A program made the position numbers and the translations under genes. Positions 1 through 56,052 of a stretch of 64,000 nucleotides of DNA are shown in pieces. The DNA comes from Thermodesulfovibrionia bacterium (GTDB lineage: Bacteria > Nitrospirota > Thermodesulfovibrionia > UBA6902). Numbering within the stretch: position 1 is the stretch's first letter; each line of letters begins with the position of its first letter. Location of the stretch: contig CAMYNN010000006.1 of the NCBI GenBank assembly GCA_947259735.1, positions 4,998 through 68,997 on the forward strand. The letters run 5' to 3'. The notes under the pieces were generated by a model. The model ran no database searches and had not been told where the DNA came from. It saw only the letters and a program-made list of their open reading frames with translations.

Positions 1-534
1 AGCGATCTTATTTACTATGGGCATGAGGTCAGGATCTGCCGGCTGTCGTACATAGACCAGCCTTTCGTAATTTTTAAAAAACAATTTCTTCATTTCCTCA
101 TCGTATAGTTCAAGCGGCTTGACGCAGTACTCATCAAAATTAAGAATGAGGTCCTTTTCAAGAAAGTAGGTTTTAGCACTATCATCCATTATTTCCCGGA
201 AGTTGCCCCTTCCAAGAAAAATCTCATAGCAGTGATGACCCTCCATTTTAATAACTCCATACTGCTTGCATAGAATCTCAATGTCAGGAAAGCACTCTCC
301 ATAAAGACATATGATGCGCTCATTAATTTTTTGTGAAGCAATGATTTCCTTCAACAGATACTTCTTGAGTTCAAGGGGATTAATATGGAGGTTAGACGGA
401 AGATATGTTGCAGTTAGTCCCGGAAATTTCTCCTCCAACCTTAACTGCTCAAGTGCAAACTGAAATACTCCGCAGGAAATTATACGGATGGGCCGAATGG
501 GCTTGTCCTCTCTGTTATCCTCACGATATGTCAT
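1..534 (-). CDS. DUF1638-like protein, N-terminal 178 aa (3' end lies beyond the window start)
   Basis: Minus-strand frame is open from the ATG (complement of 532-534) to the window edge. Translation MTYREDNREDKPIRPIRIISCGVFQFALEQL...ICLYGECFPDIEILC resembles DUF1638 proteins found beside corrinoid methyltransferase genes. It is absent from the ORF track because no stop falls in the window. Confidence 0.6.
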   Translation of the reverse strand, partial: MTYREDNREDKPIRPIRIISCGVFQFALEQLRLEEKFPGLTATYLPSNLHINPLELKKYLLKEIIASQKINERIICLYGECFPDIEILCKQYGVIKMEGHHCYEIFLGRGNFREIMDDSAKTYFLEKDLILNFDEYCVKPLELYDEEMKKLFFKNYERLVYVRQPADPDLMPIVNKIA

Positions 535-556
535 AGCAGACTCTGTTAAGTAATAA

Positions 557-647
557 GGGGCAAAGGCACAGAGGCACAAAGGCACAGAGTATAGAAACTT
601 TTTGTCTTTGCCACTTTGTGCCTTTGTGCCTCTGCATCTTTGTGCCT
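557..647. repeat. Low-complexity imperfect inverted repeat (GGCACA(A/G)AG units versus CTTTGTGCC units), intercistronic hairpin element
   Basis: Left arm ggggcaaaggcacagaggcacaaaggcacagag (557-589) is roughly complementary to right arm ctttgccactttgtgcctttgtgcctctg...tgtgcc (about 604-647). It sits between the stop of the 652-2088 gene and the start of the DUF1638 gene. Confidence 0.7.
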
Positions 648-651
648 GTTT

Positions 652-2088
652 TTAAATTCCCACAATATCCGGAAAAGCCTTTTTAATGGCGGAAATAAGA
701 TTGATGTCCAGGAGTCCGTCTTTTTCCTCTTCCAGGATTTCCTTGACCATACTGTTTGCCCTGCTCATCATGCTGGGCCTTCCCTCTTTTTCCCAGACAT
801 CGAAGATGCTCCGCACCGACAGTTCAGGATAAAAGAACTCTTCCATCATGTGGTCAACGGTATGTTCTTCCATTATATAGTTGCCGCCGGGCCCGACTTT
901 TTCGATTACGTCAAGTCCTATGGTATCATCGTCTACCTTTATCCCCGCAAGCAGCCTTCGGATCATGCCAATGATCTCATTGTCAATGACATACTGCTCA
1001 TAGGATATTGAGTTCCCTGAATCAAGCATGCCTGCCGCAAGGTGAATTAAATCAGCACCGGCCATGGCCGTCATCAGGCTTGAAAAAGTTTTTTCAGTAC
1101 CTGCCTGGATATCAGGCCTCTTTGCCTCGGTGACACCCCCGGAACCGTAGATGGGTAATTTGTAGAGCTTTGCGAGCTGAACCGCGGCCGCATTCATCAG
1201 CGCCATCTCCACAGAACCTATGGTAAATTCAACTTTCCTTAAATCCATGACTGTCGGCACAGCCCCGTAGAGCACCTTTGCCCCCGGAGCAAACACCTGG
1301 GCTATAGCCACACCCGCAAGCGACTCGGCATGCATCTGAGTAAGAGTGCCTGCAAGGGTAGCAGGTGCTGTAGCACCGGCAATCGGCGCAGGAGCGCAGG
1401 TAACCGGTATTCCATTGGTACAGCAAAAATGAAGGATACTAAGTGTTTTATTCTCTATAGTCAACGGACTTATGGCGTTTGTAATAACCGACACAAATGG
1501 CTTTTCTCTAAGGTTGTCCTTACCACCCGCAATAATGCATGCGAGCTGCCACATCTGCTTTGCGCCGTCTATGTTTTCACACCCTCCCATAACGTGTTTA
1601 TAGGTATGATTGAGTGCATGGTAGAAATCATTCAGATGATAGTGCTCCGGCCCGACATCATGGGCCTGGCATGCGACGATATAGAATTGAATATATTTCA
1701 GTTTGTCCACCAGTTTAGCAGTGTGAACAATGTCCCTGAGCATAGTGGGCCTGTAGCCTCTAGTACCCATATCGAGTATCTGAAACACCCTGCCGCCGTT
1801 GGCAAAATTTACTTTTCCTTCTCCGAGGTGAATATCATTGTTCCCGTCCCTCGAGTAAAGGACAAATCCCGATGGTGCATGGCCGAGTTTTTCATCCAGC
1901 CACTCACCATCAAATCGGACTATCTCTTTTTCAGCATCCACATGGGCCCCGGCATCTTTAAGCATATCAAGCACATCAGCATCGTGGATCCTGATCCCGA
2001 TCTTATTTAATATGTGCCGTCCGGCCTGATCAATCTTTTTCAGGTCATCAGTACCAAGTGGTGCAAAAAACGGTAAACTAAATCCCAT
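652..2088 (-). CDS. MttB-superfamily methyltransferase, non-pyrrolysine type (quaternary amine:corrinoid methyltransferase, MtgB-like)
   Basis: 478-aa uninterrupted ORF whose overall sequence resembles the trimethylamine methyltransferase MttB family (e.g. ...GGNYIMEEHTVDHM...). No in-frame TAG. Clustered with a corrinoid protein and a pterin-binding methyltransferase. Confidence 0.85.
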   Translation of the reverse strand: MGFSLPFFAPLGTDDLKKIDQAGRHILNKIGIRIHDADVLDMLKDAGAHVDAEKEIVRFDGEWLDEKLGHAPSGFVLYSRDGNNDIHLGEGKVNFANGGRVFQILDMGTRGYRPTMLRDIVHTAKLVDKLKYIQFYIVACQAHDVGPEHYHLNDFYHALNHTYKHVMGGCENIDGAKQMWQLACIIAGGKDNLREKPFVSVITNAISPLTIENKTLSILHFCCTNGIPVTCAPAPIAGATAPATLAGTLTQMHAESLAGVAIAQVFAPGAKVLYGAVPTVMDLRKVEFTIGSVEMALMNAAAVQLAKLYKLPIYGSGGVTEAKRPDIQAGTEKTFSSLMTAMAGADLIHLAAGMLDSGNSISYEQYVIDNEIIGMIRRLLAGIKVDDDTIGLDVIEKVGPGGNYIMEEHTVDHMMEEFFYPELSVRSIFDVWEKEGRPSMMSRANSMVKEILEEEKDGLLDINLISAIKKAFPDIVGI

Positions 2089-2100
2089 AATATGCCTTTG

Positions 2101-2270
2101 AAATTACGAATTATTAATTACGAATTACGAGTGATTAATAATTTGCAATTATCTTTTCGCAATTCGTAATTAGTTGTTTGTCATTTGCCCCAGTCCCCGC
2201 GACTTAGATTCACGGCGTGAATCTGTGGGGATCTCAATTCGTAATTTGTCATTTGTAATTCGTAATTATC
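2101..2270. repeat. Composite inverted-repeat element built from AATTACGAATT / AATTCGTAATT units with a central GC hairpin
   Basis: aattacgaatta occurs at about 2102 and 2116. The complementary aattcgtaatt occurs at about 2161, 2236 and 2257. The central hairpin is agattcacg/cgtgaatct (2206-2224), flanked by cccc/gggg. The right end overlaps the last codons (..IITNYK) of the 2249-3700 gene. Confidence 0.75.
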
Positions 2271-3700
2271 TGTTCTATTTCTTTAAGTACCTCATCCGAT
2301 TTCACTTCAACCTCATGTTCTGCAAGAATCCTCTTTGCCTCAGCATTGCACCGTTTGTACATGTCCATGGAGCCTGCGCTTTCCCAGGCATCATAACGGG
2401 AACGGTCGATCAGGCTGGGCAGGAAATTTGCCGTCTCATAATTTTCAAATGTGTGGTCTTCTGTAAGAAAGATAGAGCCCGGTCCGCCGGTCCCCACCTT
2501 TTCTATTACCTTGAGCGCAAGGGTATTTTCATCTACAGGTATGCCGCCTGTAAAAAAGCGGCTCATGGCTATAAGTTCGTTGGCCATTGTCACCATTTCG
2601 AGCGAAGAGGTTGTACCGAACTCTATATAACCCACATCATGGATAAGGTTAGCGCGGGAGAGCATTGATGTTGTGATAGAGAACATGGACTCAGCGCCTG
2701 CCTGGGCATCCATGACCTTTGCATCCGATGCACCTGCATATGCCCATATAGGCAGCCCGTAAAGTTCATCTCTCATATCAGCAAGCGCAGCCTGGGTAAG
2801 GCTCCATTCAGGGCAGCCGTAAGAAACAACTGTGGACTTCATATCAAGGGCGCTTACGTTCGGGCCGAAGAGGAACGGTGATCCTTTTCCAGCAAGCTGA
2901 TGTACGACAAGACCGACAAGGTTTTCAGCAATCCCCATGGCCATGGCGCCTGCAAGTGTGACCGGGGCCCCGCCTCCGGCATTTGAGCCTGAAGGGAAAC
3001 ACATGGGTATCTTCTTTTGAGCGCAGAAGATGAGTCTGTCGAGAACGTTTTCCGGAAACCTGAGAGGGCTGATGGCTTCTGAATAATTTAAAAGGAATGG
3101 CTTTAACTGCAGCTGCTCTTCACCTCCTGCAATCGCACAGGCGATCTCATAAATCTTTGCTATGTCCTTACCGCTGTCTGCAATAAATACTAGTGGCTTA
3201 TTTGTATTTTTGATCATTTCGCCGAATGCATGAATATATACGGCCTCCACCGGGACATCATCGGGGTTGGACATTGACATTGCAAAAGAGATATTTTCCA
3301 GACCATCCACAAGTTTTGCAAAATTGGCCACATCCTTAAGGAGGGTCCTCCGGCGTTCGCCTGTTTCAATATCTATTGTATAGACTGTGTCCGAGCCCGT
3401 ACCGTAGAATGGATTATTATTGAAAAGCGGCATCGCCTTGTTCCCCTTCTGGTCGTAAAGGCTGATCTGACGCGGAGCTGTCTTAAGCGCTGCCTCGGCA
3501 AGATAGGCCGGCATCCTTACCCAGTCTCCGTTGAAAACCGTGCATCCCGCTGCTGCAAGCATATCACGGGCACCGGCATGTTCCATCTTGAACCCTGTTT
3601 TTTCGATTATCTCCAGAGCTGCATTATGTATGGCAAGGACCTGTTCGCGGTTTAGTACCTTAAGGCGGGGTTGAAATGTGGGGATATCAGGTAATCTCAT
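2249..3700 (-). CDS. Second MttB-superfamily methyltransferase paralog, non-pyrrolysine type
   Basis: 483-aa uninterrupted ORF that aligns by eye with the neighbouring MttB-like protein (..FLTEDHTFENY.., ..GGAPVTLAGA..). Confidence 0.85.
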   Translation of the reverse strand: MRLPDIPTFQPRLKVLNREQVLAIHNAALEIIEKTGFKMEHAGARDMLAAAGCTVFNGDWVRMPAYLAEAALKTAPRQISLYDQKGNKAMPLFNNNPFYGTGSDTVYTIDIETGERRRTLLKDVANFAKLVDGLENISFAMSMSNPDDVPVEAVYIHAFGEMIKNTNKPLVFIADSGKDIAKIYEIACAIAGGEEQLQLKPFLLNYSEAISPLRFPENVLDRLIFCAQKKIPMCFPSGSNAGGGAPVTLAGAMAMGIAENLVGLVVHQLAGKGSPFLFGPNVSALDMKSTVVSYGCPEWSLTQAALADMRDELYGLPIWAYAGASDAKVMDAQAGAESMFSITTSMLSRANLIHDVGYIEFGTTSSLEMVTMANELIAMSRFFTGGIPVDENTLALKVIEKVGTGGPGSIFLTEDHTFENYETANFLPSLIDRSRYDAWESAGSMDMYKRCNAEAKRILAEHEVEVKSDEVLKEIEQIITNYK

Positions 3701-3727
3701 GGCTGACTCCTTTATAAAAGTTATCTT

Positions 3728-4366
3728 TTAAGACAATCCCAGTATTTTCTTTGCTTCAATCACGGCCGAGCCCGCATCAGGGGCATAGGAGTCGGCCCCG
3801 ATCTGTTCGGCAAAACCGGCGCTAACAGGGGCACCACCTATCATTACCTTTACTTTATCTCGCAGGCCGGCATTCTGTAATGCATCAATGGTCTCTTTCA
3901 TACCGGGCATTGTTGTTGAAAGCAGCGCCGACAGTGCCAGTATCTCCGCACCGGTCTCTTTGACTTTTTCAACAAATGCATCAGCAGGAATATCCACCCC
4001 AAGGTCGATTATGGTAAATCCGGCCCCTTCCATCATCATGGACACAAGGTTCTTACCAATATCGTGAAGGTCGCCCTTCACCGTTCCGATAACAACCTTG
4101 CCCTTAAAATTGATATCCTGGTCCTGCAAATGCGGTTTCATAAGGACCATGCACTCCTGCATGGCCTTTGCAGAGCGCAGCATCTGCGGAACAAACATCT
4201 TGCCTGACGCAAACCTGGCGCCGACCTCGTCCATGGGTGCTATGAGGCCCTTGTCAAGAATATCCTGAACGTCAATTTCTGCATCCAGTGCCTTCCTTGT
4301 CTCCTCAACGGCCTTGCTAATGTCAGACTTGATTATGGCCTCATTCAATGCTTCGAAGTTACTCAT
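3728..4366 (-). CDS. Corrinoid (cobalamin-binding) methyl-carrier protein, MtgC/MttC-like
   Basis: 212 aa with a helical cap plus a Rossmann B12-binding domain. It has the DxHxxG motif (GDLHDIGKN), SALLSTT and a GGAP motif. Confidence 0.9.
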   Translation of the reverse strand: MSNFEALNEAIIKSDISKAVEETRKALDAEIDVQDILDKGLIAPMDEVGARFASGKMFVPQMLRSAKAMQECMVLMKPHLQDQDINFKGKVVIGTVKGDLHDIGKNLVSMMMEGAGFTIIDLGVDIPADAFVEKVKETGAEILALSALLSTTMPGMKETIDALQNAGLRDKVKVMIGGAPVSAGFAEQIGADSYAPDAGSAVIEAKKILGLS

Positions 4367-4417
4367 CTTTTACCCCCTTTGATTCAACGGGTTAATAATT
4401 AATAGTTCGTAAAATAG

Positions 4418-5218
4418 TTATTGGTCAGCGAATATCCCATTCTGATAAGCATCAATATACTTTTCGCAGTACTCATCCCGTCCCAGGAGCATCTCAACGG
4501 ATATGATCGTTGACATGAGTTTCCTGTCAGTCGGGTCTAATATCGCTGCAGACAGACCATTGGCCATTGCAAGAGCGAGAAAATTCCGGTTAATAAGGCT
4601 CCTGTGGGGAAGACCGAAAGATACATTCGATAGTCCGCAGATAGTATTGACTCCCGGGAACCCCTGCATAATTTTATTTATGGCTCCGAGGATTGCAGGC
4701 CCCATGCGGATATCGACAGACACCGGCTGCACCAGCGGATCTACATAAATCTTTTCAACGGGGACTCCTTTGTCGGTTAGTTTATTTATGAGTTCTGAAG
4801 CTGCTTCTACCCGGTCTTCCACACTGACCGGCATTGCTGTCTGTGTCATGCACAGGGCAACCACATGGCATGGATGAGATGTTATGACCGGAAGGAGTGC
4901 CTCATAGCGATCTCTTTCAAGTGAGATTGAATTTATCATCGGCTCACCTTTGTGGAGTTTGATTGCTTCGGACAGGGCTGCGGGGTCGGGGCTGTCCAGG
5001 CAGAGCGGCAGATCAATTTGGGACTGCACTGTTTCTACGAGCCAGCAAAGACATTCTGTTTCCTTTTCCACAAAGGTTCCTGCATTGACATCAATAAAGC
5101 TTGCTCCTGCGTCAGCCTGGTCCTTAGCTACATGAACAATAAAATCAACATCCCTGATTTCTACAGCTTCAGCTATCTTTTTGCGGCTTGTATTGATCTT
5201 TTCGCCAACGATGATCAT
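4418..5218 (-). CDS. Pterin-binding methyltransferase (methyl-corrinoid:tetrahydrofolate methyltransferase, MtgA/AcsE-like)
   Basis: 266 aa. MIIVGEKINTSRKKI..ASFIDVNAG..MINSIS..GLSNVSFGLP is typical of the dihydropteroate-synthase-like methyl-THF corrinoid methyltransferases. Confidence 0.8.
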   Translation of the reverse strand: MIIVGEKINTSRKKIAEAVEIRDVDFIVHVAKDQADAGASFIDVNAGTFVEKETECLCWLVETVQSQIDLPLCLDSPDPAALSEAIKLHKGEPMINSISLERDRYEALLPVITSHPCHVVALCMTQTAMPVSVEDRVEAASELINKLTDKGVPVEKIYVDPLVQPVSVDIRMGPAILGAINKIMQGFPGVNTICGLSNVSFGLPHRSLINRNFLALAMANGLSAAILDPTDRKLMSTIISVEMLLGRDEYCEKYIDAYQNGIFADQ

Positions 5219-10092: not shown

Positions 10093-10602
10093 TCATATGA
10101 AGGTACTCACTTTTAGCGACTCCCGCCCCTCATCTTTTCTCAACGCAGCCCTTGAAGCCCTATCCACAAGCGTAAAAAGCCTGTCCATATCATCTTTCTG
10201 ATTCAATCCCTGATGTCCACGTACTTTGATGAATTTACAATTCAACTGATCGGTCACTCTGTAAAATTCCTGATACAGCTTATAATTATTAATGCGCCTG
10301 TTTTTCTTTGAGCGATAATTATTTTGCTCGAGCTGCACGCGTCTTCCCTGTAACCCCATGATATTTTGAGAATCCGTATACAAAATCACTCTCCTCCCTA
10401 TTGCCTGTATATCCTGGAACGCCCATAATAAAGTCTGTAATTCCAGTTTCGTTGAAGACGTATGCTCAAATCGCTTCACTTTCACGCGGGCCCTTAACGA
10501 ATCCAGTGAAAGTTTACCTTCAGTCACTGCGAGGTAAGCCCCGTATCCGATATTAGAATGAGCATTTACACTTCCATCTGTGAGCAGCACTATTTCATTC
10601 AT
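10093..10602 (-). CDS. RNase H type-1 family protein
   Basis: 169 aa with a DEDD(H)-like pattern: LLTDGS, TKLELQ, LYTDSQ, VRGHQG, LVDRAS. Confidence 0.75.
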   Translation of the reverse strand: MNEIVLLTDGSVNAHSNIGYGAYLAVTEGKLSLDSLRARVKVKRFEHTSSTKLELQTLLWAFQDIQAIGRRVILYTDSQNIMGLQGRRVQLEQNNYRSKKNRRINNYKLYQEFYRVTDQLNCKFIKVRGHQGLNQKDDMDRLFTLVDRASRAALRKDEGRESLKVSTFI

Positions 10603-10814
10603 AAATAGATGCCTTTCTTTCTATGTAACGTCAAACTTAAATTGTGCCGTTTTAACAATTATGAAACCCTCAAGACTTTCGCCGGTATGTCGTTATTTTT
10701 CCAAAGGTGTGAAAAATCGTTACTTCTCATAATGCTGCGGTATTAAATCTTTTATCCTGAAAGACGTGCATCTGCACGGCCTAATAATCTTTGGGCCGAG
10801 TAAAGCATAGTTTG

Positions 10815-11795: not shown

Positions 11796-11805
11796 TGATC
11801 GACAC

Positions 11806-12540: not shown

Positions 12541-12625
12541 AACTTATAGCAAGTTAAACTATAGTGTCTCTCTCTATCTCACGAAATATACATTATATAT
12601 AAAATATTTTACAAGATGAGTGGTC

Positions 12626-12669
12626 TCAGGTCTACATTCTTCAGAAATTACTGTAAAATGTAGATCTGA
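12626..12669. promoter_or_regulatory. 13-bp inverted repeat TCAGGTCTACATT-N18-AATGTAGATCTGA (candidate operator or 5' hairpin)
   Basis: The arms are at 12626-12638 and 12657-12669 with one G:T position. The left arm overlaps a possible TTACAA-N18-TACATT promoter. The repeat ends 24 nt upstream of the ATG at 12693. Confidence 0.5.
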
Positions 12670-12692
12670 CGCTGCCGATAGGCCTGAAATAG

Positions 12693-13365: not shown

Positions 13366-13614
13366 ATGAGCGAACAACAACCCAATAACCCTCTGCACGG
13401 TGTGACCCTGGCGCAGATCATGAACAGCATGGTTGAGCACTATGGCTGGGACGAGTTGGGCAGGCGCATCAATATCCGGTGCTTCAACAGTGACCCCTCG
13501 GTGAAGTCCAGCCTCAAGTTCCTGCGAAAGACTCCCTGGGCAAGGAAGAAAGTCGAGGACTTGTACATCGCCACCCAAAGGGTCAGGCACCGACAAATGA
13601 CAAATGAAAAATAA
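13366..13614 (+). CDS. DUF2132 (VF530-like) small protein
   Basis: [53 protein letters not shown] resembles the DUF2132 family. Confidence 0.7.
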
Positions 13615-18356: not shown

Positions 18357-18836
18357 GTGGATATAGGAATGGAGAAAAAATGCCGGAAAATTCTTGAGAA
18401 ATATTATAAAGAAGAAGGAAACGTCATCTCCATTCTGCAGGATATGCAGGAAGAATTTGGCTATATTCCTGATGATGCGGTGTACTGGTGTGCGAATGAA
18501 CTGAATATTCCTGCCAGTAATTTTTTTGGGGTTGCTACTTTTTATTCCCAGTTTCATCTGAAACCGAGAGGGAGGTATATCATAACGGCCTGTTGCGGGA
18601 CGGCATGCCACGTCAAGGGGGCTGATCCTATTATTCATCGCATGAGGGCCGATCTTGCCCTGGCAGAAGGTGAGACGACCACGTCGGATACCAATTTTAC
18701 ACTGGAAAGCGTAGCCTGTATCGGTGCATGCAGTATGGCCCCTGTTGTTAAAGTAAACAAGAGGATTTATGGAAATGTGACACCCGACAGAGCAACTGAA
18801 CTTATCGATGAATTCAACAACGAGAAGGGGAAGTAA
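18357..18836 (+). CDS. NuoE/HoxE-like [2Fe-2S] thioredoxin-fold subunit
   Basis: CCGTACHVKG...CIGACSMAP motif. The start may instead be the ATG at 18369. Confidence 0.85.
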   Translation: MDIGMEKKCRKILEKYYKEEGNVISILQDMQEEFGYIPDDAVYWCANELNIPASNFFGVATFYSQFHLKPRGRYIITACCGTACHVKGADPIIHRMRADLALAEGETTTSDTNFTLESVACIGACSMAPVVKVNKRIYGNVTPDRATELIDEFNNEKGK

Positions 18837-20634
18837 TGTGGCGGTAAAGAAGTCAGGGCAAAAATCTGCGCTAAAAAATCTGGAAATAAAAGTATGTGTC
18901 GGCACAGGCGGCCTCGCTGCCGGCAGCCAGGATGTTCTGGACAGGTTCGGGAAGCAGCTCAAGGCCCGGGGAATCAAAGCCGGCATCGCAAAGAAATGCA
19001 CTAAAAAAACGGGCTGCCGGGGGCTCTGTGCAAAGGACGTTCTGGTTGACGTTATCCGGAACGGCAAGAAATCAACCTATCAGTTTATCACAGTCGACAA
19101 GGTCAGCAGAATCATAAAAGAGCACGTTATGGAAGGCGTTCCTGTAAAAGACTGGCTTGTCGGTCCGGAATACGAGGCTTTTCACAGCAAGGGGACGAAG
19201 GTCCTTCTGAAGCAATGCGGAGAGATTGACCCTGAAGATATTGAGTCATATATAGAGTCAGGCGGGTACAGGGCAACGCTGAAGGCCCTGAAAATGAAGC
19301 CGGAGGCCGTTATAGATGTTATTAAAAAATCGGGTCTCCGCGGCAGGGGTGGAGCTGGATTTCCGACAGGCCAGAAGTGGGAGCTTTGCAGCAATGCTGA
19401 AGGGAGCCCCAAATACATTATATGTAATGCCGATGAAGGTGACCCCGGAGCATTTATGGACAGGTCCATTATTGAAGGGAACCCTCATTCTGTTTTGGAA
19501 GGATTGATCATCGGCGCCTATGCTTTCGGTGCATCCCGCGGTTATGTCTATATTCGCGCTGAATATCCTGTGGCCATTACCCGCCTGAAGCTTGCTATAA
19601 AAGAGGCAGAGAAAAAAGGCTTCCTGGGAAAAAACATATGCAAGCGAGGCTTTGACTTCGACATCCGGATCAAGGAGGGGGCCGGTGCATTTGTCTGCGG
19701 TGAAGAGACTGCTCTCATCGCCTCAATTGAAGGCGGACGCGGCATGCCACGTTCAAAGCCCCCTTTCCCGGTGTATCATGGACTGTGGGGGAAGCCAACG
19801 GTTGTCAATAATGTTGAAACGCTCTCAACGATTCCCCTGATCATCTTCAAGGGGGCCAAGTGGTTCTCTTCCATCGGCACGGAAACGAGCAAGGGAACCA
19901 AGGTCTTTGCCCTTACAGGAAAAATAAAAAACACAGGCCTGATCGAAGTGCCTATGGGAATTACTCTGAGAGAAATTATTTATGATATCGGCGGTGGATG
20001 CCCCGGGAACAGGGAATTTAAAGCTGTGCAGACAGGCGGTCCCTCAGGCGGCTGCATTCCTGCTTCCTATATTGATATGCCCGTAGATTACGAATCATTG
20101 CAGGAGATCGGATCCATGATGGGCTCTGGCGGAATGGTTGTCATGGACGATACGACCTGCATGGTCGACATGGCAAAGTTTTTCCTGGAATTTGCCCAGA
20201 ATGAGTCATGCGGCAAGTGCCTGCCCTGCCGGGTCGGCAATAAGCGACTCTTTGAGAGACTGAAGGATATTACGGAGGGAAAAGGCAGGGAAGGTGATAT
20301 CGAGTTCCTTCTGTCCCTTGGGGAAGACATAAAAATATCATCCCTCTGCGGACTTGGTCAAACATCCCCCAATCCTGTACTTTCTACTATTAAATACTTC
20401 AGAGATGAATACGAGGCGCATATACGGGAGCACCGGTGTCCGGCAGGAGTATGCCAGGCATTCAGGAAATATGTTGTCAATGCCGCTATTTGTAAAATGT
20501 GCGGAAAGTGCTTCAAAGAATGTCCGGCAGAGGCAATAACGTGGCAGAGAAAACAGCCGGCAATGATAAACAGAGACAAATGCATTCAATGCGGCACCTG
20601 TTATGATGTATGCCCGTTTCATGCAATACTATAA
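18808..20634 (+). CDS. NuoF/HydB-like NAD(H)-binding flavoprotein subunit with an extra N-terminal domain and a C-terminal 2x[4Fe-4S] ferredoxin domain
   Basis: GRGGAGFPTGQKW, ESCGKCLPCR, and C-terminal CKMCGKCFKECP and CIQCGTCYDVCP. The true start may be the GTG at 18838. Confidence 0.9.
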   Translation: MNSTTRRGSNVAVKKSGQKSALKNLEIKVCVGTGGLAAGSQDVLDRFGKQLKARGIKAGIAKKCTKKTGCRGLCAKDVLVDVIRNGKKSTYQFITVDKVSRIIKEHVMEGVPVKDWLVGPEYEAFHSKGTKVLLKQCGEIDPEDIESYIESGGYRATLKALKMKPEAVIDVIKKSGLRGRGGAGFPTGQKWELCSNAEGSPKYIICNADEGDPGAFMDRSIIEGNPHSVLEGLIIGAYAFGASRGYVYIRAEYPVAITRLKLAIKEAEKKGFLGKNICKRGFDFDIRIKEGAGAFVCGEETALIASIEGGRGMPRSKPPFPVYHGLWGKPTVVNNVETLSTIPLIIFKGAKWFSSIGTETSKGTKVFALTGKIKNTGLIEVPMGITLREIIYDIGGGCPGNREFKAVQTGGPSGGCIPASYIDMPVDYESLQEIGSMMGSGGMVVMDDTTCMVDMAKFFLEFAQNESCGKCLPCRVGNKRLFERLKDITEGKGREGDIEFLLSLGEDIKISSLCGLGQTSPNPVLSTIKYFRDEYEAHIREHRCPAGVCQAFRKYVVNAAICKMCGKCFKECPAEAITWQRKQPAMINRDKCIQCGTCYDVCPFHAIL

Positions 20635-20646
20635 ATAAAGGGTCCC

Positions 20647-20695
20647 GGGGTTCAAGGGGCCGAGGGTTCAAGGGACAATAACCGTTCCTGAACCC
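20647..20695. repeat. GGTTCAAGGG tandem pair with inverted partner (intercistronic hairpin element)
   Basis: The sequence ggggttcaagggg..gagggttcaaggga is followed by ttcctgaaccc. It lies between the nuoF-like stop and the fdhA start. Confidence 0.55.
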
Positions 20696-20739
20696 AGCGG
20701 CACCTGGATCCAGTGAATCCTGATTTTTAGGAGGTTGTC

Positions 20740-23436
20740 TTGTCAAAAGACAAAATAAAAATAAAGATAAACGGTAAAAAGATATCGTGCAGTCAGGGAG
20801 ACACGATCCTTGAGGCTGCAAATAAAGCGGGGATTAAAATCCCCACGCTTTGTCACGATTACAGGCTTGAACCATACGGCTCATGCAGGTTTTGCAGTGT
20901 TGAGATCAGGGGAATGCAAAGGCTGCTTCCCGCCTGTACGACACCCGCCGCAGATAATATGGATATTTCCTCAGAAAGCGACACAGTCCAGAGGATAAGG
21001 AAGAGACTGGTGTCTCTCATGCTTTCCAATCACCCCAATGACTGCATGCGATGTGAAGCTGACGGTGACTGTTCACTGCAGGACCTTGCTTATGAATATG
21101 GTGTGGACGGCAGTGAATATGGAGGTGAGAAATGGGATCTGCCGATTCGGCAGGCAAATCCTTTTATAACCTACGAACCGAACAAATGCATTGTCTGCGG
21201 GAGGTGCGTAAGAATATGCAACGAAGTTGTGATGGCAGGGACCATAGATTTTACAGGCAGGGGATTCAATACTGTCCCTGATACGGCCTTCAGGACAGCG
21301 CGTACATTGTCAAACTGTGAATTTTGCGGCCAGTGCGTGTCTACCTGTCCTACGGGGGCGCTGACCGACAAAAAGGGAAGAGGCAAGGGCCGCGTTAAAG
21401 ACTTCAAAAAGGTCCGGACTACCTGTGGCTACTGCGGTACAGGCTGCAACTTCTTTTTAAATGTAAAAGATAATAAGGTTGTGAAGGTTACGTCCGATTA
21501 TAGCGGTCCGGTGAACAGGGGGAACCTGTGCATAAAGGGACGGTATGGGTATGATTTCATACATAGTCCTGACAGAATTACGAAGCCTCTCATCCGCAAG
21601 GGCAAAAAGTTTGTAGAGGTCTCATGGGATGACGCTCTTGATCTGGTTGCGAAGAAGTTCGGTGAAATATTAAAGAAACACGGCCCTGACTCGTGCGGTG
21701 CTTTTTCATCATCACGATGTACCAATGAAGAGAATTTCCTGCTCGCCAAATTTGTCAGAACGGTTTTCAAGACGAATAATGTCGATAACTGCGCTCGAGT
21801 CTGACACGCTCCGACTGTGGCCGGTCTGGCCACCAGCCTGGGAGCAGGTGCTGCAACTAATTCACTGGCCCAGATGCCTGAAATAGATACTCTCTTCCTG
21901 TTTGGTTCTAATCCTACGGAAGCCCATCCTATTGTCGCCATTTATCTGAAGAAGGCCCTGCGGAATGGTGCAAGGCTTATTGTTGGCGATCCTCGGCAGA
22001 CATGGATGGCAAAACGCGCCGATGTATGGCTCAACCTCCGCCCGGGCTCAAACATAGCACTTATAAACGGTCTCGTTCATGTGATACTAAAAAACGGGTG
22101 GGAGAACAAAGCGTTTATCAAGAAAAGGACCGAGGATTTTCAGGAGCTTAAAAAGCATGTAAAGAAATATGACCCTAAAACAGTCGAAAAACTTACCGGG
22201 GTTTCAAAAGATAAACTGACTGAAGCAGCCAGGCTGTATTCTCATGCGGACAAGGCAATGATCGTATACGGCCTTGGTGTTACAGAGCACAGGACGGGGA
22301 CAGAGAACGCAATGGCCATTGCTAACCTTGCCCTTGCCTGCGGTCACATTGGCAGACCTTCAACGGGTATCATGGCTTTGAGAGGGCAGAACAATGTCCA
22401 GGGGGCTTCCGATCTCGGACCCGCCCCGAACATACTCCCCGGATACCAGCCTGTTGTGAACCCCGATGTGCGGGAGAAATTCGAAAAGGCATGGGGTGTT
22501 CCCATTTCACCGAAAGTTGGACTCAAGTCTGTTGAAATGCTTGATCAGGCATGCGGCAGGACATTCAAGGGTCTCTATATTCTTGGAGAAGACCCCGCCC
22601 AGACCGATCCGAATTCCCACGAAGTCCGTCGGGCCCTGCAATCTCTCGATTTTCTCGTTGTTCAGGATATCTTCCATACAGAAACCACAAAATATGCCCA
22701 CGTTATTCTACCGGGCTCAAGCTTTGCTGAAAAGGACGGCACGTTCACAAACGGTGAACGAAGGGTGCAGCGTGTCAGAAAGGCCATTCGACCGCTGGCA
22801 GGAAAGGCGGACTGGCAGGTGATCTGTGAACTTGCTACCCGTATGGGCTATCCCATGAGCTATGCTCATCCGTCTGAAGTAATGGATGAAATTGCGAGTC
22901 TTACCCCGCAATATGGAGGTATAAGTTATGAACGTCTCGAAAAAGTGAGCCTCCAGTGGCCCTGTCCGACCAAGGACCATCCCGGGACAAAGACTCTGTA
23001 TACTGACCTGTTCTCGCGGCCGGGAGGCCTGGCAAAATTTATGGTCCTTGATCATAAGGGCTCGGGCGAAGTTCCGGACAGGGAATATCCTTTCGCGCTC
23101 ATAACCGGCCGTATCCGTGAACACTACAATAACGGTTCCATGTCCAGGAGGGTGGCCGGTATTATGGAACTTGTACCTGAAGAGCATGTCGAGATGAACC
23201 CGGAAGACGCAATGAAGTTGAAAATCAAGGACAATGACTGGTTGAAAGTGGCTTCACGAAGAGGCGTTATTAAAGTCAAGGCGAGAATTACAAAACGATC
23301 CCAAAAGGGAAACCTGTTTCTCACGTTTCACTTCCCGGAAGCCCTCTCGAATTTTCTTACCTCGGAGCACAGGGACCCCATAGCCGGTACGCCGGAATAC
23401 AAGTCCTGTGCAGTGCGGATAGACAAAGTGCAATAA
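20740..23436 (+). CDS. fdhA: Formate dehydrogenase catalytic subunit, selenocysteine-containing (TGA at 21802-21804 read as Sec), with N-terminal NuoG-like Fe-S domains
   Basis: Two track ORFs (20740-21804 and 21817-23436) are in the same frame, separated only by a TGA. The junction reads NVDNCARV-U-HAPTVAGLATSLGAGAATNS, the conserved Sec/Cys active-site context of molybdopterin formate dehydrogenases. The TTG start has an AGGAGG SD. Confidence 0.9.
21808..21845 (+). promoter_or_regulatory. Bacterial SECIS-like stem-loop
   Basis: gtggcc-ggtct-ggccac (21817-21833) begins 13 nt after the TGA and is flanked by gctcc/ggagc. The apical GGUC-type loop resembles the E. coli fdhF SECIS. Confidence 0.6.
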
Positions 23437-23972: not shown

Positions 23973-24333
23973 AACGAGAACTCAGTCTCTCATTTCTCAT
24001 TTCAAGTATATCAGAGTGCCGATCCATGTCAATCTTTCAAAGCGTGACTTCTCTGCTCAAATTGTTCATGAGTGTCAGCAGTAAAGCAGGTATGTCGAAA
24101 AAAAGAATTGTGAGCGGCTCCTGCAGAAGAGACTATAGAAACACTTTCTGTGGTGACCTGGAAGAAAGATGCCTTATTACACATGCCTCTCGCCGCATTC
24201 AATACTTTTTTGAGATATGCCTGCTTTGCTGCACCAATGCCGTGGGCCAGATAAAGTTTCAAGGGGCCCTTGTTCTTAACCAGCGTGCAGCTGCTCTTCA
24301 CATAACATGTAAAAAAAATGACGTACACAGATA

Positions 24334-30312: not shown

Positions 30313-30328
30313 GGAACAATTCAAGAAA

Positions 30329-30368
30329 CAAAAAAAAGGAGCGTTGCCAGGCAACGCTCCTTTTTTTT
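30329..30368. terminator. Strong bidirectional Rho-independent terminator
   Basis: An A9 run, then ggagcgttg-ccagg-caacgctcc, then a T8 run. Confidence 0.8.
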
Positions 30369-35709: not shown

Positions 35710-38289
35710 CTACTTCCTTCTTTTGCTCTTCCCGGCGGTCTTTTTAAGGCTCTTTTTTACTGTCTTTGAGCCAGTCTTCGCGACTTTTCTTTTGACCTTT
35801 TTTGTGACAGTCTTTTTCGCTGCCTTCCCGGCAGGCTTCTTCACACTCTTTTTTACAGTTTTCGAACCGGTTTTCGCGACTTTCCTCCCGGCTTTCTTTG
35901 TGACGGTCTTTTTTGCTGCCTTCCCCGGGGTCTTCCTGCCGGCTATCTTCAGGGCGTTCTTCAATACTTCGTCCATTGTCTCCACCGGGATGAACGTCAT
36001 ATCTTTCTTGATATATTTGGGAATATCCTCAAGGTCTTTTTCATTCCTCTTGGGGATAATGACCTTGTTTATACCCATCCTCCTTGCAGCGAGGGTCTTT
36101 TCTTTTAACCCGCCGATTGGCAGTACGCTTCCCCGGAGAGTAACTTCGCCTGTCATCGCAATGCTTTTATAAACAGCCTTGCCTGTAAACACAGAGGCAA
36201 TCGCTGTAGCCATGGTGATACCTGCCGAGGGGCCGTCTTTCGGGATGGCACCGGCCGGGACATGTATGTGAATGTCATTATCGGAAAACATGGTATTGTT
36301 AATGCCGAGGGTTTTTGCCCTTGATCGAATGTAACTCAACGCAGCATGGGCTGACTCTTTCATGACGTCTCCGAGCTGCCCCGTGAGAGTCAGGCTGCCT
36401 TTCCCTTTCATGATCGTTGCTTCGATGTATATAATGTCCCCGCCTGTTTCTGTCCAGGCGAGTCCCGTTGAAAGACCGACCTCATCTTTCTTGATTTCTT
36501 CTTCGGGAAGGTACTTTGGCACGCCAAGATATTTTGAAAGGTTTGCCGAGGAAATGACGTATTTTTTGACTTTCCCTTCTGCAATTTTTCTCGCGACCTT
36601 CCGGCAGAGGTTGGCGATTTCCCGTTCAAGGTTTCTTACTCCTGCCTCACCTGTGTAATGAGTGATTACCTGCAGAAGTGCGCTCTCATTGATCTTTATG
36701 TTTGCGTCTGTAATGCCATGTTCCTCTAACTGTTTCGGGATTAAATAGTTTCTCGCTATCCCCACTTTTTCTTCCGCCGTATACCCGGAGAGGTAGAGCA
36801 CTTCCATCCTGTCTCTTAAGGGACCCGGAATGGGGTCCATCAGGTTTGCTGTCGTTATAAACATTACGTTGCTTAAATCATAGGGGACTCCGAGATAGTG
36901 GTCTGCAAAGGAGAAATTCTGCTCGGGATCCAGCACCTCAAGTAATGCAGATGCAGGATCACCTCTGAAATCCATGCCAATTTTGTCAACTTCATCGAGC
37001 ATGAAAACAGGGTTGTTTTTCCCCGCTGTCTTTATGCCCTGAATAACGCGGCCGGGCATAGCGCCCACATAGGTTCTCCTGTGACCCCTTATCTCGGCTT
37101 CATCTCTCATTCCTCCGAGGGACATCCTGTAAAATTCCCGTCCGAGTGCTCTTGCGATGGACTTCCCCAAAGATGTTTTACCCACTCCGGGCGGCCCCAC
37201 AAAGCAGAGGATGGGCCCTTTCATTTTGTCCTTCAGTTTTCTTACTCCAAGGTATTCAAGTATTCTTTCCTTGATTTTTTCGAGGTCGTAGTGGTCTTCA
37301 TCGAGAATCTTTTTGGCTCTCTTTATATCCAGGTTGTCCTTTGTGCTCTTTGCCCAGGGGATTTCAACAAGCCAGTCTATGTATGTACGTATTGTCCCCG
37401 CCTCGGCGCTGTCCTGATGCATTTTCTCGAGGCGGTTGATCTGTTTAAAGGCTTCTTTTTCTACCTTCTCCGGCATTTTCGCTTCTTCTATTTTCTTCCG
37501 CAGATCCAGTATTTCCTCGGTCTTCTCATCTATTTCACCGAGCTCTTTCTGTATGGCCTTTAACTGCTCACGCAGAAAGTATTCCCGCTGTGTCTTGTCT
37601 ATTTCGCCTTTGACATCGGACTGTATTTTTTGCTGGACCAGCAGCAGGTCGACTTCCCTGTTGAGAATTTCACTGATCTTTTTAAGCCTGATAATGGGGT
37701 CTGTTTCTTCAAGCAGTTCCTGGGCCTGCTCAGCCTTTAATCCGAGGTTTGATGCCACCAGGTCAGCAAGCCTTCCCGGTTCCTCTATATTTTCAATCAA
37801 AACTATAATATCGGGAAGGAATGATTTGCCCAGAGCAAGGGATTTGTCAACCAGTTCTTTTACATTGCGCATAAGCGCTTCTATTTCGAGAGACATCTCG
37901 GTCTGTTCCTGGTCAAGTACCTTTTCGATTTCTCCAATATAGTAAGGGTCTTCCTGATTGTATTTGAGAATCCTGGCTTTCGAAAGTCCCTGTACAAGAA
38001 TTTTCAAACGGCCATCGGGCAGTTTCAGCATTCTAAGAATTGTCCCTACGGTCCCTACGGTGTAAAGGTCATCTTTGGCAGGCGATTCAACATTCACATC
38101 CTTTTGAGAGACGAGCAGTATCAGTTTATTACTGTCCACTGCATTTTCAATTGCCTTAATTGATACATCTCTTCCCACAAATAGAGGGAGTATCATATAT
38201 GGGAAAATGACAACATCTCTTACAGGAAGAATTGGCAGGGCCGACGGGATTTCTATTTCTCGCTCTTCCTTTATGTCAAATTCTGTCAT
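35710..38289 (-). CDS. lon: Lon protease (endopeptidase La) with a lysine-rich C-terminal extension
   Basis: 859 aa with a Lon N-domain, AAA+ domain (GPPGVGKTS) and protease domain (PKDGPSAG), plus an extra basic tail of about 75 aa. Confidence 0.97.
35734..35925 (-). repeat. Two tandem 96-nt (32-aa) coding repeats in the Lon tail
   Basis: [32 protein letters not shown] and [32 protein letters not shown]. Confidence 0.9.
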
Positions 38290-53007: not shown

Positions 53008-55638
53008 ATGGAAAGTAAAAAGATACGACAGTTATTCCTCGATTTCTTTAAGGAGAAGGGGCACGAGATCCTCCCAAGCTCAAACCTTTTACCCAAAGAT
53101 GATCCGACACTTCTGTTTACCAATGCAGGCATGGTTCAGTTTAAATCCATTTTCCTCGGTGAGGAGGACAGTCCGCAGAAGAGGGCTGTCACTGTCCAGA
53201 AATGTCTCAGGGCAGGCGGGAAACACAATGATCTTGAAAATGTGGGCAGGACTGCACGGCACCACACTTTTTTTGAGATGCTCGGAAACTTTTCCTTCGG
53301 AGATTATTTCAAAAAAGAAGCAACCGAGTGGGCCTGGGAATTTCTTACCGAACGGGTAAAGCTTCCTGCTGATAAACTTTTAATTACAGTCTATGAAAAA
53401 GATGATGAGGCAGCTGAAATATGGGAAAAACATGTCGGTATTTCTCCGGAAAAGATATTCAGACTCGGTGAGAAAGACAATTTCTGGCAGATGGGTGATA
53501 CCGGGCCATGCGGGCCATGCTCGGAGATACATATAGATCAGGGACCTGAGGCGGGCTGCGGGAAGCCGGACTGTCAGGTAGGATGTGACTGCGACCGGTA
53601 CCTTGAGATATGGAATCTTGTGTTCATGCAGTACAACAGGGATTCAGCGGGTGAGCTGACTCCGCTGCCGAAGCCGAGCATTGACACCGGAATGGGGCTT
53701 GAAAGGCTCTCTGCTGTGCTCCAGGGCAAAATGAATAATTTTGATACCGATCTGTTTACGCCGATATTTAAATATGTAGAAGACATTTCGGGAAAGAAAT
53801 ACGGATCCAATCCAGAGGTAGATATCTCCATGCGCGTTATCGCTGACCATATCAGGACAGCAGCATTTGTTTTGTCCGAAGGCCTGACTCCATCCAATGA
53901 GGGCAGGGGATATGTCTTGAGGAGGATCATCAGGAGGGCTGCCCGGCACGGCTTCATGCTTGGCATAAAGAAACCATTTCTTTACGAAGTGCTTGATCCT
54001 GTGTATGACATGATGTCAGGCCCCTATCCTGAACTGATCGAAGATACAGAAAACAGCCGGAAAATACTTCGGTTAGAAGAAGAAAGGTTTGCCCACACCC
54101 TTACATCGGGTATGGCTATACTGGATGAGCTTGTGGATAAAATAAAATCTTTGGGGAAAGATACTATCCCCGGTTCTGAACTCTTTAAATTATATGATAC
54201 CTATGGCTTTCCCCTGGACCTTGCCCAGGATATTGCGGAAGACAGCAGCCTGAAAGTGGACCATAGGGGATTCAATGAGGAGATGGAACTTCAGAAGTCA
54301 CGGGCGAGGGCTTCCTGGGTGGGGGCAGAGGCAGAAATTCCTGAAGTATACAGGAAGGTGAAAGAGATGTTCCCCCCAACAGAATTTCTCGGGTATGAAA
54401 CGATGCAGGCAGACTGTATGGTGAACGGGTTGATAAAAGATGGTTCACTTGTTGAAGAAGTGACTGAGGGAGAAGAAGTGGAAATTGTTCTCGACCGGAG
54501 CCCTTTCTATGGTGAGTCGGGCGGGCAGGTCGGCGATGCGGGAGTTATGAAATCGGGCGGCCTTCGGGTTGAAGTACAGAATTCAAAAAAAATGAATGAC
54601 ATACTGATCCACGCCGGTATTGTTAAAAAAGGTGTTCTCAGAAGAGGTATTGCTGTTCATGTCTCTGTAGAAGAGGAAAGACGGCAGTCCATTATGCGGA
54701 ACCACACGGCGACACACCTTCTTCACGCAGCATTAAAAGCAGTTCTCGGAGATCATATTAAGCAGGCCGGCTCACTCGTTGCTGAAGACAGGCTCAGGTT
54801 TGACTTCACTCATTTCTTTGCGATGGATGAGCGGGAGATAAAGGAAGTCGAAGATATTGTGAACAGGAACATAATCGATAATGTGCCGGTTCAGGTGTCG
54901 GAAACGTCTCTTGACGAGGCAATTAACAGTGGAGTGACAGCGCTTTTTGGGGAGAAATATGGCCACGAAGTAAGAGTTGTACGGGCCGGTGAATTCTCTG
55001 CAGAACTCTGCGGCGGTACTCACTGTCATGCGACAGGAGATATCGGACCCTTCCGGATAATATCGGAAAGCAGTGCGGCGTCGGGTATCAGGCGCATCGA
55101 GGCACTTACCGGTTTTGCTTCTCTTGATTTTAACAGGAAGAGGGAGTCGGAACTGAAGAAAACGGCCGGGCTTCTCAAGGTGGCTGAATTAAAGGTTCTG
55201 GATAAAGTGTCAAAAATTATTGGTGACGTGAAAGAGCAGGAAAAGGAACTGAACAAGTTTAAGCAGAAGAGGGTCGCCGGAAACATTGATGATATCCTGA
55301 AGAGTACTGTGGAAATAGATACAGTAAATGTGCTTGCCCATAAAATTGACGGCCTGGACATGAAATCATTAAGGGACCTTGTTGACAAACTGAAGGACAG
55401 GATCGGTTCCGGTGTTATAGTCCTCGGTTCTGTACTCGACGGGCAGGCCTACTATGTCTCTTCAGTAACAAAGGACAATATTCCCCGCTTTCATGCAGGA
55501 GACCTGTTGAAGAAGGTTACCGGCGGAAAAGGAGGAGGCAGGCCGGACATGGCCCAGGGCGGAACGAAGGACATTGCGGGAATGGAGGAGGCACTGTCTT
55601 CATTGTCTGATATAATTAAAAATATAGATGAGAGTTAA
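53008..55638 (+). CDS. alaS: Alanine--tRNA ligase
   Basis: 876 aa with FTNAGM, the editing-domain HTATHLLH motif and a C-terminal DHHA1 domain. Confidence 0.98.
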   Translation: MESKKIRQLFLDFFKEKGHEILPSSNLLPKDDPTLLFTNAGMVQFKSIFLGEEDSPQKRAVTVQKCLRAGGKHNDLENVGRTARHHTFFEMLGNFSFGDYFKKEATEWAWEFLTERVKLPADKLLITVYEKDDEAAEIWEKHVGISPEKIFRLGEKDNFWQMGDTGPCGPCSEIHIDQGPEAGCGKPDCQVGCDCDRYLEIWNLVFMQYNRDSAGELTPLPKPSIDTGMGLERLSAVLQGKMNNFDTDLFTPIFKYVEDISGKKYGSNPEVDISMRVIADHIRTAAFVLSEGLTPSNEGRGYVLRRIIRRAARHGFMLGIKKPFLYEVLDPVYDMMSGPYPELIEDTENSRKILRLEEERFAHTLTSGMAILDELVDKIKSLGKDTIPGSELFKLYDTYGFPLDLAQDIAEDSSLKVDHRGFNEEMELQKSRARASWVGAEAEIPEVYRKVKEMFPPTEFLGYETMQADCMVNGLIKDGSLVEEVTEGEEVEIVLDRSPFYGESGGQVGDAGVMKSGGLRVEVQNSKKMNDILIHAGIVKKGVLRRGIAVHVSVEEERRQSIMRNHTATHLLHAALKAVLGDHIKQAGSLVAEDRLRFDFTHFFAMDEREIKEVEDIVNRNIIDNVPVQVSETSLDEAINSGVTALFGEKYGHEVRVVRAGEFSAELCGGTHCHATGDIGPFRIISESSAASGIRRIEALTGFASLDFNRKRESELKKTAGLLKVAELKVLDKVSKIIGDVKEQEKELNKFKQKRVAGNIDDILKSTVEIDTVNVLAHKIDGLDMKSLRDLVDKLKDRIGSGVIVLGSVLDGQAYYVSSVTKDNIPRFHAGDLLKKVTGGKGGGRPDMAQGGTKDIAGMEEALSSLSDIIKNIDES

Positions 55639-55716
55639 AAGTTAAGAGTGAAAAGTTGAAAGTGATAGTTTTGATTTCTTTTTCCCTTTAACTCTTAACT
55701 CTTAATTTTTAACTCC
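55639..55716. repeat. Low-complexity inverted repeat (GTTAAGAGT/GAAAGT units versus ACTCTTAAC units)
   Basis: aaaagttaagagtgaaaagttgaaagtg is roughly complementary to ctttaactcttaactcttaattttt. It starts directly after the alaS stop. Confidence 0.65.
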
Positions 55717-55728
55717 AAAGGGGGTATT

Positions 55729-56052
55729 ATGACAATAAATGAATTAGTCCACAGGGCATTAATGGCAGGAATTGGCATCCCTGAGAAGCTGAATGAACTT
55801 GTCGATGATCTCGTTCAAAAGGGAGAGTTGAGTGAAAGTCAGGGGGCCAAACTCGTAAAAGAGTGCTCGGACAAGGTAAGTAAATCAGGAGAGGACATTA
55901 CAAAGGGTATCACAGAGACCGTAAACAAAGCCCTCGAGAAAATGAACATCCCCACGGCGGATGAGATTGAAAAGCTGAATAAAAAAGTGACCAGTCTTGC
56001 CGCGCGAGTGAAAAAACTTGAAGAGGCTTCCTCGTCCGGGAAGAATGATTGA
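55729..56052 (+). CDS. Phasin-like / PHA granule-associated-like small coiled-coil protein
   Basis: 107 aa with the pattern ..LVQKGELSESQGAKLV..PTADEIEKLNKKVTSLAARVKKLE, as often found upstream of UbiB-like kinases. Confidence 0.55.
   Translation: MTINELVHRALMAGIGIPEKLNELVDDLVQKGELSESQGAKLVKECSDKVSKSGEDITKGITETVNKALEKMNIPTADEIEKLNKKVTSLAARVKKLEEASSSGKND

Follow-up and report, generated by a model that had tools for sequence, protein, structure and literature searches.

Self-complementary heptamer-type repeats form intergenic hairpins in a Thermodesulfovibrionia bacterium and in other Nitrospirota and Acidobacteriota

The stretch of DNA analysed here comprises 64,000 nucleotides of contig CAMYNN010000006.1 from a Thermodesulfovibrionia bacterium (hereafter the window), and the element under study, at positions 2101-2270, lies between two genes for MttB-family methyltransferases and is one of four spacers in the window in which short words are repeated in tandem between neighbouring genes of the same strand. 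The hairpins of the window are self-complementary simple-sequence repeats of the heptamer type, a kind that has already been described, and they are not REP elements; the finding extends the hairpin form of heptamer repeats to Nitrospirota and Acidobacteriota. As for their origin, the explanation towards which we lean, taken as a whole, is that these heptamer-type hairpins have grown by slippage, have become inverted and are tolerated by their host. The four sites are the following:

556..647, minus strand: octamer hairpin of AGGCACAA/TTGTGCCT units, between the MttB gene 652..2088(-) and the DUF1638 gene <1..533(-)
2101..2270, minus strand: composite heptamer element of AATTACG-type words, between the two MttB genes
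20638..20699, plus strand: octamer array (GGGTTCAA, 3.4 copies, partial complement) separating the NuoF-like gene 18808..20634 from the FdhA-like gene 20740..21804
55626..55715, plus strand: heptamer hairpin of GAGTTAA/TTAACTC units, in the alaS-phasin spacer

Arrays were called with Tandem Repeats Finder (TRF) and arms with a separate inverted-repeat finder. At three of the sites TRF resolves two arrays, the unit of one being the reverse complement of that of the other, namely 564-589 (AGGCACAG) paired with 614-647 (CTTTGTGC) at period 8, 2102-2130 (AATTACG) paired with 2236-2267 at period 7, and 55633-55663 (AGTTAAA) paired with 55688-55715 (TTAACTC) at period 7, and the inverted-repeat arms at these sites measure 29-37 nt and are 73-86% complementary. 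The fourth site is the weakest, consisting of a lone 8-nt array at 20648-20674, and no inverted pair is returned by the repeat finder at 20638-20699; nonetheless, its RNA folds as a bulged stem (z of -2.7 and -3.8 in two fold runs). An earlier, sequence-only reading of the window had described inverted arrays at all four spacers, which is borne out at three, whereas the fourth has only a weak complement. The tandem words that it reported are real, but those given as 9-11 nt long correspond to 1.1-1.6 units, the true periods being, in window order, 8, 7, 8 and 7 nt. Its statement that the words differ between loci is correct within the window, where they are mutually unrelated and have no common unit, but related genomes have AATTACG and GGGTTCAA again at other loci.

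The folding of the mRNA-sense spacers was compared with that of 200 dinucleotide shuffles, as had been proposed in that reading, and all four fold far better than the shuffles: -51 kcal/mol (z -6.8) for spacer 534-651, -47 kcal/mol (z -5.9) for 2089-2275, -42.2 kcal/mol (z -2.7) for 20635-20739 and -27.9 kcal/mol (z -3.1) for 55630-55728. Fold energies in sliding windows are driven by GC content and have little use beyond flagging 531-650. The hairpin at 55626..55715 covers the 3' end of alaS (53008..55638), including its final codons and its stop (55636-55638), and ends 13 nt ahead of the ATG of the phasin gene 55729..56052.

Four parts make up the composite element at 2101-2270, which reads, in transcription order, as about five AATTACG-type heptamers, a core of about 46 nt, about seven degenerate heptamers and four inverted TCGTAAT heptamers:

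2236..2270, minus strand: distal 5' arm on the mRNA, AATTACG x about 4.6 (TRF)
2187..2235, minus strand: dispersed-repeat core nested in the heptamer array, with a second copy in a close strain
2131..2186, minus strand: degenerate AATTACG continuation, of which 2157-2186 is the proximal 5' arm of the inner hairpin
2101..2130, minus strand: 3' arm on the mRNA, inverted array (TCGTAAT x4 in sense), found by the inverted-repeat finder, by TRF and in the fold

The 3' arm is able to pair with either block of direct heptamers: the pair 2102-2130/2239-2267 is 86% complementary, and the pair 2101-2130/2157-2186, which is the one formed in the minimum-free-energy fold, is 80% complementary. This arm ends 13 nt ahead of the ATG of the MttB gene 652..2088(-). 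At the other side of the element, the MttB gene 2249..3700(-) ends within the array 2236..2270, which takes in its stop (2249-2251) and its six final codons, IITNYK (2252-2269), in agreement with what had been noticed from the letters alone. The overlap had been taken as a spilling of the hairpin into the coding end; the gene end is probably the seed instead, as the relative with 93% identity (L003; labels L001-L098 and the like designate comparison loci from related genomes or strains) already ends in IIANY* on AATTGCGAATTAC, its gene end reading ...ATAATTGCGAATTACTAA.

A further array touches a coding end in the window and had been missed in the earlier reading, being the fifth array and the second case in which an array makes a coding 3' end:

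13592..13614, plus strand: direct heptamer array, GACAAAT x3 without inverted partner (TRF), in an 82-aa open reading frame (ORF) of the VF530 family (Pfam label), 13366..13614

That ORF ends on the array, from which its seven final codons (RQMTNEK) and its stop come.

The comparison with relatives is what carries the proposed origin of the arms. The window is not identical to any assembly compared, and three loci (L001, L002 and L094) come from close strains that are 98.2-99.85% identical to it (99.85%, 99.83% and, for L001, 98.2-99.5%); public data thus contain several close strains of the window's species. AlaRS is closest to metagenome-assembled genomes of Thermodesulfovibrionia (phylum Nitrospirota), at 77% identity. 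An exact look-up of the 483-aa MttB protein returned no record, and the corrinoid protein was taken as a substitute. The spacer between the two mttB genes measures 160 nt in the window; in relatives with MttB identities of 93, 88 and 84% it is reduced to 43, 36 and 24 nt. In L003 this short spacer has the word at both of its ends, with TTATTAATTACGAA located 14 nt ahead of the ATG. The same 14-mer is found on the sense strand in L003 and on the antisense strand in the window, within 2101-2130 and at the equivalent position; this flip in place indicates that the 3' arm arose by local inversion or inverted duplication. Both L003 and L093 already have the word AATTACG at two places, within the last codons and ahead of the ribosome-binding site, and the C-termini of more distant mttB relatives are IVKSG* and IVNEG*. 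At the level of the sequences, the comparison thereby shows local growth from a word at the gene end, with the second arm added by local inversion or inverted duplication. In L093 (94% relative, 3263-3534) the spacer has 272 nt and a different, GC-rich insert replaces the heptamer hairpin; small GC-rich repeats, for example GTCATTCCCGC...GCGGGAATC, are seen in like spacers of L093, L019 and L024, the last two downstream of alaS.

The same approach was extended to the other spacers, as the sequence-only reading had suggested, and the alaS-phasin and nuoF-fdhA spacers indeed carry arrays with different words in the relatives. Rows with wrong automatic start-codon picks were dropped (L016, L027, L025, the mttB2 spacer of L001 and L007 and the mttB1 spacer of L093), and orthologous hairpins are unalignable by sequence. 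Downstream of alaS, tandem-word hairpins with different words are found in L013, L014, L015, L016, L027, L038 and L047, and the words of the window, L014 and L015 have an AGTTA core in common. Here the first copy of the word is often made of the gene's own last codons and stop (GAGAGTTAA, CAGTAGTAA, CAAAGTGCATAG). In the nuoF-fdhA spacer, 7-8-nt arrays run from the stop codon onward in all three relatives (L095, L097 and L098): L095 has a hairpin of -47 kcal/mol, L098 a partial hairpin, and L097 a direct GAATTAC array, which is the same word as that of the element at 2101-2270. Finally, the mttB-DUF1638 spacer contains AATTAAG x4 in L003 and GGGCACGG-type octamers in L006, both being direct arrays only, of 7-8 nt. 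Some orthologous spacers therefore hold nothing but direct arrays, and those of alaS and nuoF keep arrays with other words. These data show that words turn over rapidly and that arrays encroach on dispensable C-terminal codons.

We have also carried out a census in 1.09 Mb of non-redundant sequence, comprising the window and loci from 80 species, in which inverted repeats with the same internal period in both arms were counted. Within this set the enrichment that the earlier reading had put forward as a check is present, with 30 periodic hairpins (25 of period 7, one of period 8 and four of period 9) against 0-2 in each of five dinucleotide shuffles. All 30 belong to Nitrospirota or Acidobacteriota; 29 of them are in intergenic DNA and 19 have co-oriented neighbours, and convergent and divergent spacers also hold some. 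Most begin no farther than about 25 nt from the upstream stop codon. The density amounts to 4.3 hairpins per 100 kb in this species, 2.7 in close Thermodesulfovibrionia, 3.2 in other Nitrospirota and 2.6 in Acidobacteriota, and to 0 in nine loci of other phyla (117 kb). Tandem arrays of 2.8 or more copies, counted in 1.16 Mb, most often have period 7 (74 arrays), and 45 of these 74 are non-coding in a set with about 10% non-coding sequence. A locus far denser than the window was noted in Nitrospira sp. RSF3 (L055), in which 738-4086 and 10241-13303 contain seven periodic hairpins in 14.6 kb, several of them with AGTTCTG/AACTCAG.

Long stems directly after stop codons could be taken for intrinsic terminators, and low-complexity sequence for an assembly artefact, yet we give next to no credence to either explanation. 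The four elements have no U-tract, terminator scans found no terminator-like site on any of them and no T-run directly follows the stems in their tails, which agrees with the earlier observation that a clear T-run is missing. A canonical A8/T8 terminator is present at another place in the window. This is the perfect 25-nt palindrome at 30324-30374, with A8/T8 flanks and placed between two plus-strand genes, which has the look of a canonical bidirectional intrinsic terminator, and therefore the organism does use U-tract terminators. The hairpins, moreover, are inside functionally linked gene sets. The genes around the element at 2101-2270, as obtained from ORF and domain annotation, are all on the minus strand across 1-5218:

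<1..533, minus strand: DUF1638 gene
652..2088, minus strand: MttB-family methyltransferase gene, 478 aa
2249..3700, minus strand: MttB-family methyltransferase gene, 483 aa, C-terminus QIITNYK*
3728..4366, minus strand: corrinoid protein gene
4418..5218, minus strand: pterin-binding methyltransferase gene

Regarding artefacts, the same sequences are present in three other assemblies. In the three close strains the mttB-mttB spacer is identical over 216 nt and the hairpin at 556-647 differs by one single-nucleotide polymorphism, and that at 55626-55715 is identical in L094; such recurrence in independently assembled strains indicates that the hairpin sequences are not artefacts of assembly.

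Searches against Rfam 15 at gathering score assigned no family to the hairpins, and at E <= 1 these gave only sub-threshold look-alikes of microRNA precursors. The only family found was PYLIS_3, the pyrrolysine insertion element of mttB, at 1035-1134 on the minus strand and inside mttB (39.3 bits against a gathering score of 38); the match sits in the 478-aa MttB-family ORF, which has no in-frame TAG, and probably reflects coding-sequence homology in a non-pyrrolysine MttB.

The core at 2187-2235 brings in another alternative, that of non-autonomous mobile elements of the MITE or REPIN kind, which would insert between genes and whose terminal repeats would be the tandem words. The GC hairpin noticed in the sequence-only reading at 2206-2224 is indeed an exact palindrome of 9+9 nt (AGATTCACG-G-CGTGAATCT), but it is not particularly GC-rich and is part of this separate repeated core. 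A second copy is located at about 16471-16517 of L001, about 4.4 kb off, in the strain with 98.2-99.5% identity, where it has the opposite chromosomal orientation, lies in a spacer of convergent genes and again has TTCGTAATT words on either side; the aligned stretches including flanks are 78% identical, the core itself being more so. Both known copies are thus flanked by direct TTCGTAATT words, which may represent a target or a duplication. A mobile origin would also agree with the presence of AATTACG, GGGTTCAA and AACTCAG arrays at non-orthologous loci and in different genomes, and with the different inserts gained by the mttB-mttB spacer in different lineages. Nevertheless, the four elements of the window have no common sequence, relatives already have the words at the site, and the 3' arm copies local sequence in inverted form; further, the alaS-spacer words of the window, L014 and L015 are related through AGTTA, which fits descent in place, and no transposase can be linked to the elements of the window. 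The core is not present in the mttB-mttB spacers of the relatives compared, its pattern AGATTCACGNNGTGAATCTGTGG was not matched by any of 185,579 species genomes (one genome per GTDB species), and a looser pattern gave in JGI metagenomes four matches, in a context that is not AT-rich and with flanks unlike those of the core, which we attribute to chance, so that no further copies were found in these two public collections. These results make a mobile origin of the hairpins improbable in our view.

A GC-rich palindrome, CCTGCCTGCCGGCAGGCAGG, is likewise dispersed in AT-rich intergenic DNA (window 59044-59063, L013 8701-8720 and L018 10651-10670), and in L013 it stands at the centre of the alaS tandem-word hairpin, being a second GC-rich core nested in such a hairpin. 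Separately, two elements of 155-170 bp with inverted-repeat ends, at 24078-24232 and 58931-59100, have the termini AAAGCAGGTAT...ATACCTGCTTT in common and different interiors, and may constitute a MITE-like family. The window also contains a 96-nt tandem repeat (35728-35925, 2.1 copies, 79% matching) inside an 859-aa minus-strand ORF, 35710..38289.

The words that recur within or between genomes are AACTCAG, AATTATG, AATTACG and GGGTTCAA; AATTACG also flanks the second copy of the core and is found again in L003 and L097, as GGGTTCAA is in L098, and AACTCAG is found at several loci in L055. Recurrence across genomes is one point in favour of reading the arrays as binding sites of some protein that recognises DNA or RNA, which might be a global regulator, a nucleoid protein or a factor of the S1, Csp or CsrA kind; another is that the paired hepta-/octanucleotide arrays of Geobacter metallireducens have been annotated as putative global regulator sites (PMC2700814). 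We regard this possibility as very unlikely: the words at the window sites and at the orthologous sites are too different for a single protein, the neighbouring genes (methyltransferases, formate dehydrogenase, alaS) have no common function, and no candidate binding protein was found.

A more serious, although still doubtful, alternative is that the hairpins are selected RNA punctuation, REP-like in function, which would stabilise the upstream cistron, set termination at the overlapped stop or couple translation, the words drifting so long as complementarity of the arms is kept. In many lineages the same spacers hold hairpins, whose words are unrelated or related only in part; these hairpins span from within about 25 nt of the stop to just before the Shine-Dalgarno sequence, which is always just outside the 3' arm (5-45 nt beyond), and the sequences are stable among close strains. 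The arms are also oriented with respect to transcription and the 5' arm is enriched in stop triplets, as quantified below, and a like role has been proposed for the STRR hairpins of cyanobacteria (PMC2670836). On the other hand, the mttB-mttB hairpin is absent in relatives of 84-93% identity, stemless direct arrays occupy some orthologous spacers (L097, L003 and L006), and periodic hairpins occur in convergent and divergent spacers too. Stems selected as RNA should moreover favour G:U mismatches, and on the sense strand there are 17 G:U against 25 A:C (p = 0.28); with no excess of G:U over A:C, this test gives no sign of selection on the RNA stem. As regards the overlapped stop, Liang, Rudd and Deutscher reportedly found in 2015 that REPs of E. 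coli lying no more than about 15 nt from a stop codon lower expression through ribosome stalling.

A more specific form of selection, which we consider unlikely, would be that the stop-anchored hairpins of 7- or 8-nt words in Nitrospirota and Acidobacteriota are a selected device, in which the stem, by placing the stop beside the following ribosome-binding site, could tune termination and re-initiation, or could keep the pyrimidine arm hidden from Rho. With a period not divisible by three, stop triplets would appear in all three frames of the purine-rich first arm, and the arms would co-evolve by template switching, position and shape being kept while the sequence turns over completely.

Several observations do weigh against the tolerated, slippage-grown origin that we favour. 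Copy number is invariant among strains that are 98.2-99.85% identical, unlike what is known for freely slipping or phase-variable repeats. Arrays persist in the same spacers at AlaRS identities of 55-77%, a span over which deletion bias would clear useless DNA, and some words recur at non-orthologous loci of different genomes, which hints at a limited vocabulary or at dispersal. In addition, the purine-rich arm is transcribed first in 22 of the 25 oriented hairpins (p = 1.6e-4), and the first arm contains 58 stop triplets against 27 in its partner, where composition alone predicts 39 +/- 4. Both biases could possibly result from seeding at the stop codon or from avoidance of exposed pyrimidine-rich RNA. 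Array persistence, arm orientation and the enrichment of stops in the first arm go beyond a purely neutral account.

The slippage-grown origin can be formulated as a series of steps. Replication slippage would first amplify a word of 7 or 8 nt at or next to the stop codon, after which a local inversion or a template-switch duplication makes the complementary arm, a step that is shown at 2101-2130. The array would then extend until constrained by the last dispensable codons upstream and by the Shine-Dalgarno sequence downstream; at 2187-2235 a separate dispersed-repeat core of about 46 nt would have landed in the array. The hairpins, presumed to be transcribed in operon mRNAs as non-terminating structures with predicted stems of 20-35 bp, would be mainly tolerated, self-perpetuating DNA, and the hairpin form may make the extra 60-150 nt harmless by folding them away and holding the next ribosome-binding site near the stop. 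As a barrier to 3' exonucleases, the stem probably also shields the upstream cistron.

These hairpins have to be placed among known systems. Heptanucleotide repeats are the most abundant class of long simple-sequence repeats in most genomes, and polymerase slippage has been proposed for them (Mrazek 2007, as related in PMC4679880 and PMC4692102). In Xanthomonas such repeats lie between the same genes in related strains, variable in length and sequence and with some inverted pairs (PMC4692102, PMC4679880); in Geobacter metallireducens octanucleotide repeats in fours, or heptanucleotide repeats in fives, are arranged as inverted pairs (PMC2700814); and in cyanobacteria STRR hairpins occupy the hupS-hupL spacer of several genera, for which transcript stability and translational coupling were proposed (PMC2670836). 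The architecture, which had been called unusual in the sequence-only reading, is thus not so, as inverted heptamer pairs are known from Xanthomonas, cyanobacteria and Geobacter. The window has the traits of the STRR and heptamer class, namely a tandem 7-nt unit (5-11 nt in the wider class), occurrence above chance and a mostly intergenic location, and like STRR its arrays often form hairpins between co-transcribed genes and occupy the same gene pair in several species. However, the host belongs to the Nitrospirota (Thermodesulfovibrionia) and not to the heterocystous cyanobacteria, units of 8 nt are found at two of the four sites, and the AT-rich words differ from STRR1-3. STRR word families are found at many loci per genome; within the window each site has its own word, and several of the words recur at other loci of related genomes.

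The arrays of Geobacter metallireducens are similar in having four to five tandem units of 7-8 nt, in inverted pairs (drawn as strand-switching loops) and in intergenic DNA, but they follow the consensus GTTGCTYN or MTYCTGA over 16-48 loci in many copies, and the words of the window fit neither; the ATTCTGA arrays in L060 do fit MTYCTGA. The heptameric repeats of Xanthomonas (GGGAATC), Nostoc (GGGGAYT) and Beggiatoaceae (TAACTGA) resemble those described here in the dominance of period 7, the intergenic location, the spacers between the same genes and the occasional inverted pairs (PMC4692102, PMC4679880). They are mostly direct, with one word per genome and anchored at start codons, whereas here inverted hairpins with many words are typical and the arrays are anchored at stop codons. 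As for the core at 2187-2235, it resembles the Nostoc small dispersed repeats (SDR), in being a tiny core within heptamer arrays or hairpins, though with about 46 nt and two known copies. The SDR, reportedly described by Elhai et al. in 2008, are said to be 21-27 nt long and nested in Nostoc heptamer arrays.

The REP- or BIME-like character that the earlier reading suggested holds as an analogy, as the elements of the window, like REP/BIME and REPIN of Enterobacteria and Pseudomonas, are presumably transcribed, hairpin-forming, extragenic imperfect palindromes between co-oriented genes and without a U-tract, and they may be likened to REP/BIME in the ability to stabilise the upstream mRNA. It does not hold as a family: the four share neither a consensus nor a conserved palindrome of 20-40 nt, their arms have an internal period, and the GTAG/CGTC tag that REP palindromes have at one end (PMC3733652) is found on neither strand of any of the four elements. 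They also lack the combination of a GC-rich stem and a U-tract that characterises intrinsic terminators.

A full-text literature search returned no paper tying such repeats to Nitrospira. Among the long simple-sequence repeats of bacteria, those built of heptamers are the commonest. The arm at 2101-2130 provides a worked example of how an arm originates, with a 14-mer flipped in place with respect to a relative of 93% identity. The arrays rewrite the C-termini of genes, as from IVKSG to IIANY to IITNYK, and such low-complexity overlap of gene ends is expected to complicate gene calling and assembly. Three regularities emerge for these repeats: the arrays start at the stop, the purine- and stop-rich arm comes first, and the spacers keep their arrays while the words change.

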